From assembly GCA_964016885.1 (NCBI GenBank), contig OZ024751.1, forward strand, positions 17,794,001-17,858,000: a DNA stretch of 64,000 nt, read 5' to 3'. Of the stretch, positions 7,471 to 63,158 are shown piece by piece (position 1 is the stretch's first letter; every line of letters starts with the position of its first letter). Source of the stretch: Eledone cirrhosa (taxonomy: Eukaryota). The translations under genes and the position numbers were made by a program. The notes beneath the pieces were generated by a model that did not search any database, was not told the DNA's origin, and saw only the letters and a list, made by a program, of their open reading frames with translations.

Positions 7471-7629
7471 GTTAATGTTTAAAGTTGTGGAAATGAAATA
7501 AACGTGGGTAAAGTATTGTACTACAGATAGAATGGGGTATAGGTGGTAAAATATTGGTAAATGGTGGGCAAAATTGTATATCTTGATTAAATATACGGGT
7601 TAATAAATAGTTGATAATTAAAATACATA

Positions 7630-7662
<33 letters not shown>

Positions 7663-7671
<9 letters not shown>

Positions 7672-8119
7672 GTATAGAAATTTTGTATTCGAAAGAAAAA
7701 CGATTTTAGGAAGCCGTAGCTATGAGAACACCGGGGAGGGGGGGGACGATCGCCCTCTGGTGTTGTCCAGCAGAAGCAAGGGGGACAACCGTCTATGCAT
7801 TTCAGGTTTGACTGGCCTTCGTCAGGACGATCCCTCCCACTGCTCTGCGACTGCTGGACTTGAAAACAGCCGAGAATATATAGTTTTCTCGTCTGTGACA
7901 ATGAGGTGATTAATCTCATTTGCATATGAAGCTGCACAAGTTAAGCTCAAATTGTCAAGCCTGAAATGCATAGACGGTTGTCCCCTTTGCTTCTGCTGGA
8001 CAATACCAGAGGGCGTTAACCCCCGGTGTCCGCATAGCAACGGCTTCCTAATATCCTATTTCTTTCGAAATACGAAATTTCTATACATATTGTATAAAGC
8101 TATGCTTGAAGCGAAATCC

Positions 8120-8125
<6 letters not shown>
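7663..8125. mobile_element. Fold-back family E: ~145-bp inverted arms, ~140-bp centre, ~30-bp tail, inserted in (TA)n
   Basis: 7663-7812 is the reverse complement of 7954-8095. Confidence 0.9.
7790..7829 (-). ncRNA. Minimal type I hammerhead ribozyme (family E)
   Basis: Minus strand reads CGTC-CTGACGA-AGGccagtcaaaCCT-GAA-ATGCAT-A-GACG: perfect core, 4-bp stem I, palindromic stem III ATGCAT. Confidence 0.88.
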
Positions 8126-8147
<22 letters not shown>

Positions 8148-8152
<5 letters not shown>

Positions 8153-8500
8153 CGATATTAAACAAATGGAAACTATATTTATAAAACCATATTTATTTCA
8201 TTATACATATTTCAGGGATACCATATTAGAAATATGGCATGCCTTCTTCGGATAAAATACAATATATATGCAGTTTTATAAATAAATTTGACGTACCATA
8301 AATATTGTTCAACTTCCATTTAAAAAAGTTGGTTTCTAATACGGTATCCCTGAAATATGTATAATGAAATAAATATGGTTTTATAAATATAGTTTCCATT
8401 TGTTTAATATCGTATATCTACTCCAAAACTTGTTGAGTGCTTTATATTAGTTATAAAATATTTACTCGTTGTAACCCAACAATTTTAAATAAAACTTTTG
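8148..8500. mobile_element. Fold-back family F copy with tail; variant hammerhead (core CCGAAGA) on the minus strand at 8194-8259
   Basis: 8148-8222 mirrors 8343-8417. Minus strand reads TATTTTAT-CCGAAGA-AGG...CCT-GAA-ATATGTAT-A-ATGAAATA. Confidence 0.8.
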
Positions 8501-8563: not shown

Positions 8564-8606
8564 ATGAGAATAAACGTGCTGCCTGGTTGCAAATGGGTTA
8601 CATATG

Positions 8607-8680
8607 AATAAAGTGGTCCTTCGTCAGTGACCTTCCAGCCTGTGATGGTTGGAAGATCACTGAAGAAGGACCACTTTATT
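8607..8680. repeat. Short fold-back (family L) with CTGANGA in each arm; relatives at 59441-59492 and 61095-61152
   Basis: aataaagtggtccttcgtcagtgaccttcca is mirrored by tggaagatcactgaagaaggaccactttatt. Confidence 0.7.
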
Positions 8681-8682
8681 AA

Positions 8683-8778
<96 letters not shown>

Positions 8779-8836: not shown

Positions 8837-9024
8837 ATAAGTTTATCCCGGGTTCAATCGGGGGAAACAACAGTAAGTAACGTACTCATTAGATAGCAGA
8901 GTATACATATTTAATATAGAAATGGCTTCTACAGAACTAGAACTGTTTCATTCAGGAGAAATCACCAGGAAGTCCTGGTGACTTCTACTGAATGAAACTG
9001 TTCTCGTCCTGTAGAAGCCATTTA
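8837..9024. mobile_element. Fold-back family A
   Basis: Tail ataagtttatcccgggttcaatcggg followed by the palindrome aaatggcttctac...gtagaagccattt. Confidence 0.8.
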
Positions 9025-9040
9025 TATATATATATATATA

Positions 9041-9087
<47 letters not shown>

Positions 9088-9089
<2 letters not shown>

Positions 9090-9272
9090 GGCGGTGAATT
9101 GGCAGTATGGGTAGAGGGTCTGACGCCATGCTTTCTAGCATAGTTACGTCCCTTTACATTCTGAGTTCAAATCCCGCCGAGGTTAGCTTTGCCTTTCATC
9201 CTTACGGGGTCGATAAAATAAAGTACCAGTAATGTACTGGGTAATTGCTGGCCTTGTGCCTAAAGTAGAAAC

Positions 9273-9276
<4 letters not shown>
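9088..9276 (+). mobile_element. tRNA-derived SINE copy
   Basis: Full match to the 1135 family. Confidence 0.85.
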
Positions 9277-9321
<45 letters not shown>

Positions 9322-12097: not shown

Positions 12098-12625
12098 TTG
12101 GATTGGCAGAATCGGTAGAGAGTCGGACGCCATACTTTGCAGCAAAGAGTTACGTCCATTTATGGTCTGAGTTCAAATCCCGCCGAGGTTAACTTTGCCT
12201 TTCATCCTTACGGGGTCGATAAAATAAAGTACCAGTTATACACTGGGGTAATTGCTGGCCTTGTGCCAAAAGTAGAAACAATTATTATTATCATCAATAG
12301 CGGTGAATTGGCATAATTGGTAGAGGGTCAGACATGCTTTCCAGGGTAGTTACGTCCCTTTATGATCTGAGTTCAAATCCCCCGGAGGTTAACTTTGTCT
12401 TTCATCCTTACAAGGTCGATAAAATAAAGTACCAGTAATATACTAGAGACGATTTAATCGACTTCTCCTCCCCCAAATCACTGGCCTTGTGCCTGACCCT
12501 TTACGTTCTGAGTTCAAATCCCGCCGAGGTTAACTTTGCCTTTCATCCTTACGGGGTCGATAAAATAAAGTACCAGTAATATACTGGATAATTGCTGGTC
12601 TTGTGCCAAATGTAGAAACAATTAT
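12098..12625 (+). mobile_element. Three tandem tRNA-derived SINE copies (the third is 5'-truncated)
   Basis: ctgagttcaaatcc at about 12167, 12367 and 12508. Confidence 0.85.
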
Positions 12626-12707
12626 TATTATTATTATTAATAGTAGTAATAGTTGTAGTAGAAGTAATAGAAGTACAAGCAGTAGGAGTAGTAGCAGCAT
12701 CAACATC

Positions 12708-12767
<60 letters not shown>

Positions 12768-28256: not shown

Positions 28257-28555
28257 TATGTATACATATATACATACATGTGTGTGTAAAACTAAATGAT
28301 AAATCAATAAAAATAAACAATAAATCAATCAGTAAATCAGTAAATAAGTAAATCACAGCAATGCTCCAGAAAGTTCAAACTTTAGACGTAACAGCCACCT
28401 TCGCGAACTCCACTAAGACCGTTTTCTGTTTTTTACGTGTGTCTTCATATATTTGTGTGCCCCTCTCTCTCACGCCTTCTTTTTTATAAACACACACATA
28501 CACAATCACGCGAGTACACATACAAACACCACACACACACACATACACAACACAT

Positions 28556-28925: not shown

Positions 28926-30189
28926 CATATACACGCACTCACATACGAACACAGGCTCAGACACGCACGCGCACACATATATATCCAACATACACACAAA
29001 CACAAACACCACTAACACAACTGCTGCCACGGTCCATGGCCCCGTGACCTGTCGTCTGCTTGCAAATTTACCCCTTGAAATTTTGGCACCTCGCCCATCG
29101 TTCTATACTCCACGTATACACACACGCACAAACACTCACCACACACTGAGACATGCACACATATACACATAAAGAGATATACACCGACAAGTACATACAC
29201 ATACACACACGCACACATATTCAGACACACAAAAATATTCTCACGCACAGACATGCACACCAAATGTCACGTTTTGTATCCACTCTCAACCATCAATGTA
29301 TACGCATGCACACACACAAACTCACACACATAGACAACAGAAAACAAGAACACACACATACAGACAAACTCACACACACACACATACAAACACGCACACA
29401 TACAAACTCACACACACATCAACAAAAACACGAACACACACACACAAACTCATACACATGGACAACAAAAATACGAACACACACACAAACTCACACATAG
29501 ACAACAAAAACACGAACGCACGCACACACACAAACTCACACACAGCAACAAAATGTCAAACACACACACAAACAAACTCAAACACATAGACAGGAAAAAC
29601 ACGAACACACACACACGCATACGTACATTCACTCACTAAAATTCACAGACGCGCACATATACTCACGATCACATGGACACATAGATATATACACATACAG
29701 AGAGAGACACACACACTGTCATACAGATATATGCACACCAAACGCCATCTTGTCCCCACGATTATAAAACCGGATTTATAACACTTATCCTTGCTATTCC
29801 TAAACACGAACAATTTTTGTTTAAATTACTGGTTTAAGTGTCGCTCCTGACTCTCATCCCCACCCTCTCCCGATATCTCTCCCTCGCCCCTCTAATGCTC
29901 CTCTCTCTCTTCCTCTCTCTCTCTCTCCCTCTCTCTGTTTTTCTCTAGCGACTGATTTTGTTTGTTTTACACACATACAAGCATAATATACATGCATGTA
30001 TAAATTATTGTAGTAAGTATATATAATATAATATAAAATAAAACAAGGACGAGTGGTTACGCCTTCATTATGTTTATTGGTTGGTGACGTGCGTTTCGCC
30101 ACCGATCAGCTCAAGGTTCGATCTGCATAGATCTAGCCCCCATTCTATAATCCGCAGCTCGTCAGACCCTCTTAGTGATAATAAAAAAA

Positions 30190-31580
30190 AATATTTGATC
30201 GGGGTCTGGTTCGGACCGGACCTCCAGGTGGAGAAAAACTGGAACGAGGTCACGGCCAGGGAATTTGCGCTCACCCAGAAGTGGGCAGAGTGCAAACTAT
30301 CCTTGAAAGGTCAAGCGGAGGTGGTGAACACTTTCATAGCGTCCGTCATCTACTACCGCTTGACCGTCGTGCCTTGTTCCCGTGAATACCTCGCCAAGAT
30401 GGAACGCATGCTCTTCCAGTTCCTTTGGAAGTAGAAGGCTCCACTGGTGGGGAGATCCGTCTGCTGCCAGCACCCTTCCAACGGAGGGCTGGGGATGCCG
30501 TGGCTGATGATGCGCAAGCACGCTCTGAGGCTACGGCATCTCCAGGTATTCCTCACCGACCAACCGGTGTGGGCCCCGTTTGTGAGACAGGCCTTCCCGC
30601 AACATGTCTCGCTGACGGAGCTGCAGTCTTGCGTCAAGCGGAGACCAAAGAAAATGGGCGCCTGACACATTGAATGCGCTCAGGCGCTCACAGTTTTCTG
30701 TTAAGCAGGCACAGCAATCAGTGGTGATTCCATGTTGTCATTCTATAGAGGGATGATATGTTACAAGTGCGACGACGTGCTCGGAGAGACTCTGGGCGTC
30801 GAAGACGATGAGCTCACCTGTCTGTTTGGTAGGACTTTCCGCCCGGGATCTATGGATAATTTCCAAAGGACTCTGGCCTGGCAGGGCTACCGAGGAGCTC
30901 TCCCAGTACGCAATAAGATCTACACGCACGGGCGCCCTCAAAGAGGACGTTTCCAGGATGTGAGCGCGACATTGAAACCACTCTGCACGCAATTGTACAC
31001 AGCCCGGGCGTAACCGACCTGTGGAACTACGCAGAATAAATGCTGTCGCGTGTGGGACAAATCCAGTTGACTGCCGAGTCCATAGTAAGGATCAAACCGC
31101 TATCTTCATTTAAAAACGAAAGAGAGGCGGTTTTCCTCTGTATAGTGGCTATGGTAAAAGAGGTTATATGGTGGACAAGATTGAGCGGACTGCGGACACA
31201 TACCTTTCTCTCCCTGACAACAACTGATTCCCTTCTTTAGGTACCACTTTAGATGGAGAATCAGAATGGCGAGAGAGCACTGCACCCCAGTAAATTTACT
31301 GAAAGGTGGGTGAATGTGGCAAAAATGGCCCGAGTGATTAGGTCTTTGTTTATAAGCCTGAAGGTTGAAGAAGAGAGCAAAAGGAAGAAAGGAGCACTTG
31401 AAAAACATGCTCCTGGAGTTGAGGGTTGTTCTATCGACGGGATATACGCCTCCCCTCTATTGGGGATTTGATTGTTATATTTTAATGTTAAAACTTTTTA
31501 CACGACAGTATGTAAAATCCCCACCATAAGTCTTTATATGATCCCCTTTTCTTGTGCGCCCTTGTTGCAAATAAAGAAAT
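30190..31580 (+). pseudogene. 5'-truncated, decayed Tx1/L1-like non-LTR retrotransposon (ORF2 post-RT region and 3' UTR)
   Basis: LIGVWFG...LSLKGQAEVVNTFIASVIYY...FQFLWK*...GGLGMP matches the LGxxF, LSxxG+, FxW and GGLG motifs of L1/Tx1 ORF2. Several stops and frameshifts; ends in AATAAAGAAA followed by (TATC)-like repeats. Confidence 0.88.
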
Positions 31581-32052
31581 ATATCTATTTATCTATTTAT
31601 CTAATTATCTATCTACCTATCTATCTACCTAATTATCTATCCATCTCAGTCACTCCCAAACTCCCATAATTAATTAATTAATCAATATTGTCTTTTGTCT
31701 ATAATTATTACTATCTCTCTGACACTGTTCCTCCTTCTTCCACTTTCCCACTTGTCTAAACCTATCATTGTTTCTCTCTGTCAATCTATTTAACTTTCAT
31801 CTTTCTACCTATTCTCTCTCGTTCGTTTTTAATTCTTCAATTCCTTTATCTTCCCTCTCTCTATAATAGACTCTTTATTTCTCTCTATTAGCCGTCTTTT
31901 TCTAAGTTCTACACCTCCCTCAATATCTATCTATCTATCTATCTAGCCATCTACCTATCTATCTATCTACCTACGTATCTATCTATCTATCTATCTATCT
32001 ACCTCTATCTATCTATCTAGCTAGCTAGCTATCTACCTATCTATCTATCTAT

Positions 32053-32372
32053 TGGGTGAAAGTGGCGAGAATGGCCCGTGTGAATGGGCCTTCACTCTAC
32101 ATCAGACTATAGGTGAGGAAGATGAAAGACCAAGACAGCACCCCTTCTCTGTGCTCCTGAGGAAAAGGGTTGCACACTTTTTTCGGGGGGTGGGCGAACC
32201 CCCAAGGCGCCTCCTCTCTATTGAGGATTTTGTTATAAATTTTATTCTGTTATATTTTATTTTATTTTTATATTTTGTTATTGCCTCCTCCTTATTGAGG
32301 ACGCCTTGTTTTGTAAACTCCCCCCATTGTACTTGTCCCACTTTTGATGCCCTGGTGGCAAATAAAAGAAAC
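32053..32372 (+). mobile_element. Short 3'-end fragment of the same Tx1-like family
   Basis: gggtgaaagtggcgagaatggccc...ggtggcaaataaaagaaa, nearly identical to 33279-33510. Confidence 0.85.
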
Positions 32373-32380
32373 ATATCTAT

Positions 32381-33511
32381 CCTTTGGAAGAAGCGGGCTC
32401 CTATGGTGAGGAGATCCATCTGCTGTCAACACCTTTCGAAAGGAGGGCTGGGGATGCCGTGGCTAATGATACGTAAACACGCATTAAGGCTACGGCACCT
32501 CCAGGTATTCCTCACCGGTCAACCGGTGTGGGCCCCGTTTGTGAGGCGAGCCTTTCCCAGACTCGTCTCACTCACCGAGCTGCAATCCTGGGTCAAGCAA
32601 AGACCGAGAAAACTGGGCGCCTGGCACACCGAGTGTGCCCAGGCGCTCACGGCTCTCTGGCAGGCGGACCCGGCTGTCAGTGGAGAATCCACCTCGTCAT
32701 TCTATAGAGGGCTGGTGGTTAGCAGGTGCGACGACACCCTCGCAGAAGCCCTAGGCATGGAGGAAGACGAACTTGACAACCTGTTCGGTAGGACATTCAG
32801 CCCGGGACCCATGGATAACTTTCAGAGGTCCCTGGCTTGGCAGTGCTACCGAGGGACTCTGCCCGTTCGAGAAAGGCTCTACAGACACGGGCGCCCGGGT
32901 AGGGACCCCTCGAAAAAGATCTGTCCCAGATGCGTGTGCGACGAGGAAACCGTTGCACACGCATTGGTACACTGCTCGGGCATTGCCGATCTGTGGGGCT
33001 ATGTCGAACAACTGCTGTCAAGGGTGGGACCGATCCGGTTGACCACCGAGTCTATTGTAACGATCAAGCCACCTCCCCTCTTCAAAAACGAAGGAGAGGC
33101 GGTGTTTCAGTGCGTAATAGCCATGGCGAAAGAGGTTGTATGGTGGACGCGTCTGAAAGGACTGAGGTCAGACATCTTTCTCTCTGCCAACAACTGGTCC
33201 TTTTCTTCCGATACCATTTCGGAAGAAGGATCAGGATGGAGAGAGAGGTGCTGCACCCCAGCCGTGTTTATGAAAGATGGGTGAAAGTGGCGAGAATGGC
33301 CCATGTGAATGGGCCTTCACTCTACATCAGACTATAAGTGGGAAGATGAAAAATCAAGGGAGCACCCCCGCTCTGTGCTCCAGAGGAGAAGGGTTGTACA
33401 CTTTTTTATACATTGTTATTGCCTCCTCCTTATTGAGGACGCCTTGTTATGTAAACTCCCCCCATTGTACTTGTCCCACTTTTTGATGCCCTGGTGGCAA
33501 ATAAAAAGAAA
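32381..33511 (+). pseudogene. Tx1/L1-like ORF2 C-terminus with CCHC zinc knuckle, plus 3' UTR
   Basis: LWKKRAPMVRRSICCQHLSKGGLGMPWL...CPRCVCDEETVAHALVHC...LWGYVEQ. Frameshift near 33195. Confidence 0.9.
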
Positions 33512-42915: not shown

Positions 42916-42954
<39 letters not shown>

Positions 42955-42958
<4 letters not shown>

Positions 42959-43305
42959 TGTTTCTACTTTAGGCACAAGGCCAACAAATATCCAGTGCAT
43001 TACTGGTACTTTATTTTATCGACCCCGTAAGGATGAAAGGCAAAGTCAACGTCGGCGGGATTTGAACTCAGATCGTAAAGGGACGTAACTATGCTGGAAA
43101 GCATGGCGTCCGACCCTCTACTGATACTGCCAATCCACCGCCCTGATTTCTAGTATAGGCACAAGGCCAGTAATTTTGGGGGAGGGGAAAGTCGATTAAA
43201 TTGACCCCAGTGCGTGACTGGTACTTTATTTTATCAACCCCGTAGGGATGGAAGGCAAAGTTAACTTCGGCGGGATTTGAACTCAGACCATAAATGGACG
43301 TAACT
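42955..43305 (-). mobile_element. Two tandem tRNA-derived SINE copies
   Basis: ggatttgaactcag at about 43058 and 43273. Confidence 0.85.
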
Positions 43306-43307
43306 CT

Positions 43308-56498: not shown

Positions 56499-57218
56499 TA
56501 GGTATTAGGATTTGTGCTCTGAAATAGCGATGTATACATGATTGTATGTATAGTATATTTGGCAATATACCGTATGTTTAATTAAAAACATTTTGAAGAC
56601 CATACGCTATCGGTTTTAAAGTAGTGACTATGTCACTTACTTCTTTTCTGTGAAAGAGGGGAGAGAAGCTGACAGTCTGTTTCAAGCTGTTGGCGATCAA
56701 CAGAGCCACGCACTCCTTGCTTTCGCCGAAAATTATAGAAGGTGGATTCTTATAGAATTCCAGTAATAATCAGGGGCTGATTATACAGAGCGATTGAAGG
56801 TCCAGCAAAAATTATGTATTAGGATTGGTGCTCTGAAATAGCGATGTATACATGAATATGTATGTATAGTACATTTGACAATATACCGTATGTTTAATTA
56901 AACATGTTTTGCTGGACCGGCAGTCGCTCTGTATAATCAGCTTCTGATTCTTACTGGAATTCTATAAGAATCCAGCTTCTATAATTTTCGGCAAAAGCAG
57001 AGAGTGCATGGCTCTGATGATCGCCAACAGCGTGAAACAGACTGTTAGCTTCTCTCCCTTCTTTCACAGAAAAGAAGTAAGAGACATAGTCACTACTTTA
57101 AAACCGATAGCGTATGATCTTCAAAATGTTTTTAATTAAACATACGGTATATAGCCAAATATACTATACATATATTCATGTATACATCGCTATTTCAGAG
57201 CACCAATCCTAATACCTA
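56499..57218. mobile_element. Fold-back family I: ~310-bp arms; the centre is a direct repeat of the outer ~85 bp of the left arm
   Basis: 56499-56810 mirrors 56907-57218, and 56816-56902 repeats 56502-56587. Confidence 0.92.
57010..57050 (+). ncRNA. Type I hammerhead ribozyme (family I)
   Basis: GGCT-CTGATGA-T-CGCcaacaGCG-T-GAA-ACAGaCTGT-T-AGCT. The mirror copy at ~56667-56707 has a mutated core (CTGTTGA). Confidence 0.85.
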
Positions 57219-57479
57219 TATATATATGTGTGTGTGTGTGTCTAGAGTGTGTAACTTGGAGTTACTGTAGGTTCATCCAGGTGAGCACTCTGTTTACGTT
57301 CACTTCAGTGTCGAGATGTAGAGCTATACAGAATGTATTATAGTTAAAAAAATACAAGGACGATTGGTTACTCCTTCATTATGTTTATTGGTTGGTGATG
57401 CGCGTTTTGCCACTGACCAGCTCAATATAAACAATGAGTTATATGCTTTGTTGATGAATATTCAATAGAATTATGTTCA

Positions 57480-57975
57480 TAACAGATATGAAGCACTCTA
57501 CAATGAAATATTTTTATCTGGAGTATTATAATATTAATAATAGTAATAAATGGAAAATATCACTATAGCATCATATTTATTTTATTATACATATTTCAAG
57601 GATACCAAATTACAGTATGCTTTCATCAGATAAAATAAACATTTGATGTATAAGATAGTGGCATACACAAAGTATAAACTTCCAACGCCAGCTTACAGTG
57701 GGTGAACCCAACATAAGCGTCCGAAGTCGTTCATCAGAAGGACATCCATATTAAATTTTCCTTCTGATGAACGGTTTCGGACACCTCTGTTGAGGTCGCC
57801 TGTCTTCGTGAAACATGAACTTCACTGAACTTATAACATGAAGTTATATCTGTCGAAAGCATACTGAAATATTAGTACCCTTGAAATACGTATGATAAAA
57901 TACGTATGGTTTTATAAAGATATTTTTCATTTGTTGATACTCCGGATAAAGCTGTTGAGTGCTTCTAATCTGTTG
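57480..57975. mobile_element. Old, diverged family F fold-back with an internal second hairpin (57721-57780)
   Basis: aacagatatgaagcactc...tttcaaggatac is imperfectly mirrored by gtacccttgaaatacgtat...gagtgcttctaatctgtt. Confidence 0.65.
57576..57639 (-). ncRNA. Type I hammerhead ribozyme (family F)
   Basis: TTTATTTTAT-CTGATGA-AAGcATAC...GTATcCTT-GAA-ATATGTAT-A-ATAAAATAAA. Confidence 0.8.
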
Positions 57976-59442: not shown

Positions 59443-59552
59443 GATGAAATACCAATGATGGTTGGCAAATCACTGATGAGGGACTAATTTTATAATATGT
59501 AATCCATGTGCAACCATGCAGTATTCTTCTCCCCATGTTTTTCATATATATA

Positions 59553-60543: not shown

Positions 60544-61207
60544 GTAACCCATTAGCAACCACGCAGCACGTTTATTCTCATATTTACACATATTTTTTCC
60601 CCCGCTGTGACCCGTCTATTTCGTTCTTACTGCTTCCTCTTTCTCTGTATCTTTACCCTCTCTAACAGTCACTCTCTCTGTTAGCCTCTTCCTCACCCTT
60701 CACTCACTCACTCTCTGTTACTACCTCTCCTCCTCCTCCTTCTTCCCGTTTGACCTGTGCGTAATTCTTTTCTTTCGCACCCTTGGTCAGGCAGATCGCT
60801 TTTTTTCTCTTTCTCGTCTACGATTTCACAGACTAGATCCCTTCTTCCTCCCGTTAGACCTGTACGGAATTCCTTCCTTGCTCACATTCCAACCAGGTTT
60901 GATGGTCTTTATTCTCTCTCGTTCACGATTTCACCGAACTTATATTCATGGAAATTTGGGACTTGACTCCTTCTTCCTCACTTTTCGTTGCTTCACCATC
61001 TTTGTTTATTTACACTCTTGTGTCCCCTCTATTTACGTGTCCCAATGATTTTTTTAGCCGTGTCTCGCACTAACCGGAGGTATATGGTCTTTAAAGCGAT
61101 GAAATACCAATGATGGTTGGAAGATCATCACTGATGAAGGACTAACTTTATTTATATATATATATATATAATCTTCTATAATCTTCGGCGAAAGCGGCGA
61201 GTACGTT

Positions 61208-61250
61208 GCTCTGATGATCGCCAACAGCGTGAAACAGACAGTTTGTTAGC
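61208..61250 (+). ncRNA. Type I hammerhead ribozyme in a family I single arm (61172-61385)
   Basis: GCT-CTGATGA-T-CGCcaacaGCG-T-GAA-ACAGAcagTTTGT-T-AGC. Confidence 0.85.
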
Positions 61251-61410
61251 TTCTCTCCCTTCTTTCGCCGAAGAAAAGAAGTAAGTGACGCAGTCACTAC
61301 TTTAAAACTGATAGCGTATGGTCTTCAAAATGTTTTTAATTAAGCATATGGTATATTGCCAAATATACTATACATACATTCATATATATATATATGTATA
61401 TATATATTAG

Positions 61411-61992: not shown

Positions 61993-62038
61993 AGCGGGAG
62001 ATGCATACATACACATATATATACACATATATACACAC

Positions 62039-62083
<45 letters not shown>

Positions 62084-62086
<3 letters not shown>

Positions 62087-62297
62087 CAAAGGAATTGTGG
62101 TAAGGAACCAGATGGACCATAACGTACCAGAGTACTTAATACTTAGTTCCAGAGTACTCAATACTTAGAGTAGTAGAGTGGGAAAAAGTATGACCCCTAC
62201 GGCAGAACTCATGCCGTTTCGACGGCTATTTCTGGACTCAGAGTCCAGAAATAGCCGTCGAAACGGCTTGAGCTCTGCCGTCGGGATCATACTTTTT

Positions 62298-62301
<4 letters not shown>
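62084..62301 (-). mobile_element. Fold-back family B with a small internal duplication in the tail
   Basis: Palindrome centred on ctggactcagagtccag. ccagagtact.aatacttag is duplicated. Confidence 0.85.
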
Positions 62302-62349
<48 letters not shown>

Positions 62350-62975
62350 TATATATTTTTACATAATACAGAAACAGAGCCCCTTTTATTTGCTCTAGGT
62401 TGAAATTTACATTGTATAATATCTGAATAATTAAAAGGGTCTATAACCCCCCCCCCCCCACACACACACACACAGATATTCAGGCATATACATACACAGA
62501 ATGGAGACACATACTTAATCGCACACACATGTCCAAACGTATACATTTGCAACAGCAGACAAAATTCATAAACACAAACACACAATCACATTTAAACATA
62601 TTTACACATAGGAGCAAACAAATATCAGACATACATACAGTAAGAGACACATAGTCATAGACATAAACTCGCACGCAATCACACGCAGATTATATGCATG
62701 CATATTTATAATCACACAGTGAGAAACACGAAGGCTTATAATAAATGTAATAGCGAGGTTTGTGAGCAAATTTGGACTTAGTGGGAGTTATATGTTTTTA
62801 TTTATGCACAAATTGATATACCAACCACGCACATACATAGGTACAAACCCATATGAATAGATAGATACATGCATATATATATATATATATATATACTATC
62901 CAGGAAGCTCCAAGCGTTAAGGTTGTATTTTTTTCAGGGTATGTCAATATTTATTTATAAAACTAATCTGTATTG

Positions 62976-63041
62976 TATTTGATCTGATGAAAGCGCACCA
63001 TAATTTGCCTTGGTGGCCCTTGAAATATGTATAATAAAATA
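62976..63041 (+). ncRNA. Type I hammerhead ribozyme in the family F arm 62895-63085
   Basis: TATTTgAT-CTGATGA-AAGcgCACCA...TGGTGgccCTT-GAA-ATATGTAT-A-ATAAAATA. Confidence 0.78.
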
Positions 63042-63158
63042 AATATGGTTTTATAAATATAGTTTCCATTTGTTAATATATTGTATATATATATATATAT
63101 ACGTATATATGTATATCTAGTATGTATATGTATATTTTAATAAGTATATATATATATA

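Follow-up and report, generated by a model that had tools for sequence, protein, structure and literature searches.

The window, a 64,000-nucleotide stretch of Eledone cirrhosa contig OZ024751.1, is N-free and rich in microsatellites, and it carries at positions 56499-57218 a fold-back made of two arms of 312 nt each (56499-56810 and 56907-57218). The arms are 93% complementary, differ by 21 substitutions in 312 positions with zero gaps, and have 96 nt between them. A previous sequence-only reading had described the locus as a fold-back whose spacer is a direct repeat of its own terminus, a description borne out by self-BLAST, alignment and shuffles. By BLAST, the spacer matched the left terminus (56807-56911 vs 56493-56595) with 90.5% identity and an E value of 9.5e-36, and the local score between both segments was 150, vs a highest score of 33 among 1000 shuffles. 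Because of the extent of this match, the repeat, hereafter X, is about 100 nt long rather than the ~85 bp given by that reading, whose coordinates did lie inside the repeat and in register.

Architecture of the fold-back and its context in the window

The period between X anchors was 314 nt, rising to 316 nt beyond a 2-nt insertion. If the strand with the hammerhead is taken as sense, the left part of the locus reads X-body-X on the minus strand, as had been proposed, and its 413 nt correspond to 1.32 units of 314 nt, that is, to more than one unit length. This partial tandem is joined 5'-to-5' to one inverted unit, which reads body-X on the plus strand, so that the 5' ends meet centrally and both 3' ends face TA/TATG/TG microsatellite (Table 1). 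Both the hammerhead site and the unit junction are included in the left arm, which at its outer end exceeds the usual long end of the family by 6 nt (56493-56498), taking in the first bases of the next unit. The right arm terminates in TA/TG microsatellite, and its start is at most a few bases away from the unit boundary, a position that random truncation would rarely give. At the inversion junction, a perfect 16-nt palindrome (56890-56905) is overlapped by a 10-nt palindrome (56900-56909), and about 5 nt (56907-56911) are common to both arms. The search for target site duplications returned low-complexity 10-nt matches only, none of them abutting the left end, the flanks being microsatellite, and TRF revealed no 314-bp array at the locus.

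Table 1. Coordinates of the features described at and near the fold-back (window positions)
Feature	Position	Strand	Basis or remark
Left flank, TA and TATG microsatellite, likely target	56300..56492	.	repeat content
Left arm, partial tandem: X (5'-truncated upstream unit)-body-X-tail	56493..56905	-	413 nt, 1.32 units
Outer X copy with tail	56493..56595	-	alignment with spacer
Left hammerhead, type I, decayed	56660..56716	-	core at 56703
Spacer X copy: 3' ~100 nt of upstream unit, pseudo-LTR equivalent	56807..56911	-	BLAST, alignment, junction bridged in other copies
Inversion junction	56890..56911	.	palindromes and bases common to both arms
Right arm, inverted copy with 312 of the 314 nt of the unit	56907..57218	+	terminates at the long 3' end of the family
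Right hammerhead motif, type I	57001..57057	+	motif mapping, constrained fold
Optional 3' tail, 39 nt	57180..57218	+	on both outer fold-back ends, absent from arm 3
Right flank, TA then TG microsatellite	57219..57241	.	repeat content
Arm 3, separate 5'-truncated family copy inside a TA run	61173..61383	+	BLAST

A third arm had been placed at 61172-61385 by the sequence-only reading, and the presence of a family copy there was confirmed. The BLAST match extends over 61173-61391 with 88% identity, although the element sequence itself ends near 61383 and the remainder corresponds to the TA run. Arm 3 ends at a short, tail-less end and the right arm at the long end, the difference being 39 nt. A letter of arm 3 at 56649 (left-arm numbering) is an alignment artefact arising from a 3-nt insertion, and it was disregarded. 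A short repeat with half a hammerhead core is found at 61098-61170, 59443-59493 and 8643-8698; its copy at 61098-61170 lies directly upstream of arm 3, with a TA run between them.

Self-BLAST detected 22 fold-backs in the window, 18 of which have microsatellite on at least one side, indicating that fold-backs of this style are routine in the window. When these fold-backs and that at 7627-8158 were tested, a loose hammerhead-core pattern was present in 6 of the 23, and a spacer repeating its own arm in only one of them, that at 56499-57218 (among spacers of 20 nt or more). It is thus the partial tandem that distinguishes this locus. A second fold-back family has four copies (1532-1758, 17252-17591, 27922-28269 and 62015-62345) with arms of 50-75 nt and a variable loop; each copy is bordered by a TA run on one flank and by a ~80-nt extension, common to all four, on the opposite flank, a fixed asymmetry that exceeds the usual 30-40-nt tail. 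The spacer of the fold-back at 24778-25283 overlaps the sole Rfam match at gathering score, a weak tRNA at 25003-25073. In addition, the window contains two 3' fragments of a non-LTR retrotransposon (30042-33339 and 49778-50194), which are 74% identical to each other, with a zf-RVT domain just under the Pfam cut-off (E 9.4e-06). An abundant repeat of ~190 nt, with more than 10 copies at 80-95% identity (1124-1335, 2329-2829, 9020-9318, 12099-12726, 18593-18783, 42946-43928 and others), is presumably a SINE.

The 314-bp unit and its copies in public reads

The unit is 314 bp long, with a GC content of 0.37-0.38. It contains no ORF of more than 63 codons, its longest stop-free stretch being of 63 codons, and an RT or GIY-YIG ORF is absent. 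The unit was also considered as a tRNA-derived SINE, a candidate that was rejected on finding no Pol III A and B boxes and no tRNA within it. Self-pairing of the unit was better than that of 60 dinucleotide shuffles, with z values of -3.2 to -5.6.

Family copies were analysed in four of the eight listed public runs, using as alignment reference the permuted unit 56596-56911, in which the X-to-body junction is internal. Sequences aligned were 5027 contigs of contig set X1, 2 contigs under a second organism label (X4), and 4140 and 3451 reads of the RAD runs X6 and X7, respectively. The family is thus represented by thousands of sequences in public reads, mostly 90-99% alike. Pieces, loose ends, joints and variants are described here from the 10 of 5162, 20 of 535, 15 of 45 and 40 of 118 listed, respectively. 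No loci were found by pattern scans in metagenome contigs or in viral contigs.

Among the loose ends listed, the 3' ends of the family fall at two TA-joined sites about 39 nt apart. Loose letters ending in TA were found before 56813 in 73 of 5027 contigs (X1), 327 of 4140 reads (X6) and 309 of 3451 reads (X7), and before 56858 in 44, 377 and 257 sequences of the same sets, respectively. Since the reference has a private 2-nt insertion, the real long-end boundary lies near 56853 and not at 56858. The ends of RAD molecules, which all fall at AATT sites (56731-56734, 56756, 56813 and 56899), were read as restriction cuts and rejected as biological ends, and loose ends located before 56756 and behind 56813, with an agreement of 0.34-0.36, were taken as ligation chimeras. 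Because of these library artefacts, the RAD runs are no measure of the share of copies with the tandem junction.

The X-to-body junction was bridged by at least 31 letters on each side in at least two pieces among the 10 of 5162 listed. Piece 8 of contig set X1 bridges it gap-free with 17 differences in 129 letters, and therefore comes from another locus even if X1 is the source of the window. Piece 10, from X4, bridges the junction and then continues into body-end letters. Furthermore, in at least 24 contigs among the loose ends listed, the body gives way to diverged letters resembling X. Other copies with X ahead of the body, on which the sequence-only reading had made its interpretation depend, are therefore observed, and the recurrence of the junction in two other contigs indicates that the spacer is not a one-off duplication. 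Piece 1 of contig set X1 covers the whole body, stops at 56814 and has unaligned letters beyond, and it may correspond to a copy that lacks X on its upstream side. Among the 10 of 5162 pieces listed, there was neither a full dimer carrying two hammerheads nor a piece spanning the unit. Regarding orientation, at least three other strand-change joints (56684/56889, 56857/56902 and 56648/56739) among the 15 of 45 joints listed indicate that inversions recur in the family.

These data bear on whether the locus arose by a one-off local event, either the duplication and inversion, during DNA repair, of a solo copy, or a chimera produced in assembly. Fold-backs are indeed common in the window (22 by self-BLAST). 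However, the 21 substitutions and zero gaps between the arms are unlike a chimera, the three X copies show the same degree of divergence (5, 4 and 5 mismatches in 89), the spacer copy being no closer to the outer left copy than the third copy is, and the junction is present at other loci and under a second organism label. The bridging contigs largely refute an origin of this kind, which we consider highly improbable.

Depth over the hammerhead lobe in contig set X1 was 5,000 vs over 200,000 at its flanks (summed contig depth was not taken as copy number), indicating that much of the family differs there. The lobe (56651-56727) is the least covered and most variable segment, with the flanking hairpin regions and the tail being well covered. 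From these alignments, subfamilies seem to differ mainly in the hammerhead lobe. The low lobe depth would also be in line with a unit that is the terminal repeat of a longer autonomous Penelope-like element (PLE), of which the three arms would be 5'-truncated stubs, and such an origin is the usual one for scattered hammerheads in animal genomes (PMC4209133). On the contrary, the tail is followed by the hammerhead and then by the tail again within 314 ORF-free nucleotides, and at least six single-contig joints among those listed link the 3' body directly to the 5' body across the variant lobe. The unit may descend from a PLE terminal repeat, but an origin of the arms as PLE stubs appears quite unlikely.

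Hammerhead motifs of the family

Motif mapping placed all type-I core positions and the three helices of a hammerhead in the right arm, with the core from 57014, and in arm 3, with the core at 61211. Both motifs have a 3-bp helix II on a U-U pair, a short and near-palindromic helix III and an internal loop in helix I, and in both of them N17 is U (57046 and 61247, respectively). The two ribozymes had been described as intact from the sequence alone; core and helices do map, but the term has to be qualified by the minority U17 and by the U-U pair at the base of helix II. C17 is the majority letter in the family, and U17 represents 3% of the depth of contig set X1 and 26-29% of RAD reads. An A at position 10.1, closing the U-U pair, was present in 5% of contig-set X1 depth and in about 30% of RAD reads.

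The left motif retains C17 at 56671 and has decayed by a change of A6 to U at 56700 and by a change at 56685 that breaks a helix II pair. Both changes are private, the other letter being found in 99% and 97% of contig-set X1 depth. Most family sequences retain the hammerhead core and C17. A subfamily with a different distal helix I retains the cleavage triplet and the proximal helix I; the loose end behind 56647 that marks this distal variant was found in 28 contigs and 291 reads. No hammerhead family was retrieved from Rfam at gathering score, nor among the 38 matches at E up to 10. Matches to miRNA families at E up to 10 fell far below gathering and were rejected, as they reflect the long hairpin and the TA runs.

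Other hammerhead-like sequences occur in the window. A family with an 8-bp AT-rich helix I is present at 57545-57935, 2237, 37254, 52404 and 62881-63116, and one of its copies is a fold-back located 330 nt from the 56499-57218 locus. Full or half hammerhead-core-like motifs were also observed in the arms or loops of the fold-backs at 53585-53983, 7627-8158, 55128-55353, 19751-19858 and 8599-8688. In the isolated hammerhead-like cores at 50820 and 60038, helix II is preceded by one additional base, a feature reported for the minimal hammerheads of PLEs (PMC4209133).

The letters of the two arms were compared with those of the family. The left arm departs from most of the contig-set X1 depth at 13 listed places of the body; at 8 of them the right arm carries the majority letter, and at the other 5 it shares the minority letter of the left arm, including letters found at 1% and 8%. 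These two minority letters break the stem closing the hammerhead lobe on the left and on the right, whereas this stem is intact in arm 3. The pattern fits a single insertion derived from one source lineage and followed by about 4% decay per arm. N17 is discordant, as the right arm shares its minority letter with arm 3 and not with the left arm, and it conflicts with the one-template reading at that single site.

Insertion mechanism, template and comparison with known elements

PLE insertions have been described in which a full copy is preceded by a truncated copy, with an inverted copy adjacent at the 5' end, a tail of 30-40 bp and a bias towards TA microsatellites (Craig et al., PMC8557442). 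Their inverted junctions carry palindromes, for which self-priming has been proposed (Arkhipova et al., PMC3846280). In vitro, a PLE protein cuts and extends both strands (Frangieh et al., PMC11167929), and, on unprocessed RNA, it begins synthesis at two internal positions, one on either side of the tail (PMC11167929). All four structural marks of these insertions, namely partial tandem, inverted copy, optional tail and microsatellite target, are present at the locus studied here. Since a partial tandem plus an inverted copy and an optional tail is the standard PLE layout, the arrangement is unsurprising and a circular template is not required.

On balance, we favour the reading of the locus as a decayed insertion of the 314-bp repeat into a microsatellite, likely made by a PLE enzyme acting in trans on an uncleaved RNA template longer than one unit. 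The PLE endonuclease would cut AT-rich DNA, and reverse transcription would begin internally, at the tail, some 172-178 nt 3' of the hammerhead site, proceed across this site and the unit junction, and end after copying about 100 nt of the upstream unit. For the inverted arm, a template of the same lineage would have been used, with synthesis primed at the second cut end or by a cDNA that folded back on itself. A short microhomology or palindrome would have joined the two arms, each of which would subsequently have decayed by about 4%. As template, we consider most likely a transcript reading through a source locus in which the unit is in tandem or partial tandem.

The hammerhead site is crossed by each of the three arms, with 3' ends located 133 and 172 nt downstream of it; therefore, the template was not a ribozyme-cut linear monomer. 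The sequence-only reading had proposed reverse transcription of a tandem or circular RNA, and a template longer than one unit agrees with the 1.32-unit left arm, but the layout by itself needs no circle. The extra X could also have been acquired from a linear unit-length RNA if the reverse transcriptase, at the 5' end of one RNA, jumped to the 3' end of a second molecule, in keeping with a right arm of almost exactly one unit that starts at the unit boundary. Nevertheless, the junction sequence at the internal site is identical to that at the left outer end, which includes 6 nt of the next unit, and the junction is bridged gap-free in piece 8 of contig set X1, whereas independent jumps would be expected to produce variable joints. 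We consider template jumping unlikely.

The same element and the same PLE-type integration could also be reconciled with a ~314-nt circular RNA, made through cleavage and ligation by the hammerhead, as in the cycle of non-LTR retrozymes, and copied for more than one turn. The crossing of the hammerhead site and the unit junction by the left arm, with its outer end 6 nt into the next unit, is compatible with such a template, and when folded as a circle the unit gave z values of -3.5 to -5.6, with 0 of 60 shuffles as good. The core and C17 are retained in most of the family, and units of similar size form circles in mussel, coral and axolotl (PMC7229834). However, a circle would leave the same DNA footprint as a multimeric transcript, and the antisense strand folds comparably (z -4.2 to -4.8). 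In addition, the hammerhead fold costs 8.9 kcal/mol over the best fold in the right arm, 10.2 in the left arm and 3.0 in arm 3. Hammerhead cleavage was dispensable for insertion in PMC11167929, and only one of nine tested retrozyme dimers was cleaved in a 2026 preprint (10.64898/2026.07.22.740005). A circular template is thus possible but doubtful, and the uncleaved multi-unit RNA used by a PLE enzyme remains our preferred reading.

The likeness of the unit to non-LTR retrozymes, also put forward from the sequence alone, holds for size, GC and hammerhead type. With animal non-LTR retrozymes (Cervera and de la Pena 2020, PMC7229834) it shares a non-coding monomer of ~300 bp with GC under 45%, a type-I hammerhead, a self-paired fold and a head-to-tail junction. 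Its U-U pair at the base of helix II resembles that of axolotl HHR_Amex2 (PMC7229834), and the axolotl retrozyme hammerhead with this pair reached 22% cleavage in an hour (PMC7229834). On the other hand, the retrozyme tandem comprises two complete hammerheads (Li, Clavereau and Pollet 2026, 10.64898/2026.07.22.740005), whereas the locus has 1.32 units. It also contains an inverted copy, a word ('inverted') that is absent from the main text of PMC7229834, and neither tails nor 5' inversions are described for retrozymes in the accessible text of the 2026 preprint. As the PLE marks are present and the defining two-hammerhead tandem was not found at the locus, we designate the unit as retrozyme-like and PLE-mobilised, and not as a proven retrozyme.

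In the literature searched, which consisted mostly of papers outside subscription and of sources other than repeat databases, there was no paper on the 314-bp family, and in the same mostly non-subscription papers no PLE-type tails or inversions were reported on retrozymes. The family appears to be new and is explained by known biology, and repeat databases may already catalogue it. A more speculative proposal, which we regard as rather doubtful, is that the family is a circRNA-forming retrozyme whose genomic copies bear a full Penelope footprint, comprising two internal start sites 39 nt apart, a 5' inversion, a partial tandem and a TA target. If true, these copies would provide direct structural evidence for the mobilisation of retrozyme circles by PLE enzymes, with the 39-nt tail region as the cis signal that identifies the partner element; the retrozyme repeats described in PMC7761336 show no conserved motif indicating a partner. 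As to the enzyme that moves animal retrozymes, the link to PLEs has so far been argued from shared hammerheads, co-occurrence and terminal-repeat homology, the last two in the 2026 preprint (10.64898/2026.07.22.740005). A retrozyme-sized unit with PLE-specific ends adds a third type of evidence, and the unit offers a 314-nt substrate for in vitro PLE assays. The one useful point is the PLE-type footprint on a retrozyme-like unit, the locus itself being an old decayed copy with a known layout.

Compared with endonuclease-bearing PLEs (PMC8557442, PMC3846280, PMC11167929, PMC8969392), the locus has in common the pseudo-LTR partial tandem, the 5'-joined inverted copy, the junction palindrome, the optional tail (39 nt here), the TA microsatellite target and a hammerhead near the 3' end. 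It differs from them in its unit of only 314 bp without an RT or GIY-YIG ORF, in its nearly full-length inverted copy, in a tail present on both outer ends, whereas PLEs often have it on one (PMC8557442), and in its hammerhead, which has a helix III and a longer helix I than the minimal form of PLEs. The Chlamys PLEs of algae, such as MRC1, resemble the unit in being putatively non-autonomous and in having pseudo-LTRs and head-to-tail insertions, but they mostly lack canonical hammerheads and show 3' similarity to an autonomous partner (PMC8557442). Altogether, the locus matches the layout of PLE insertions but is no autonomous PLE.
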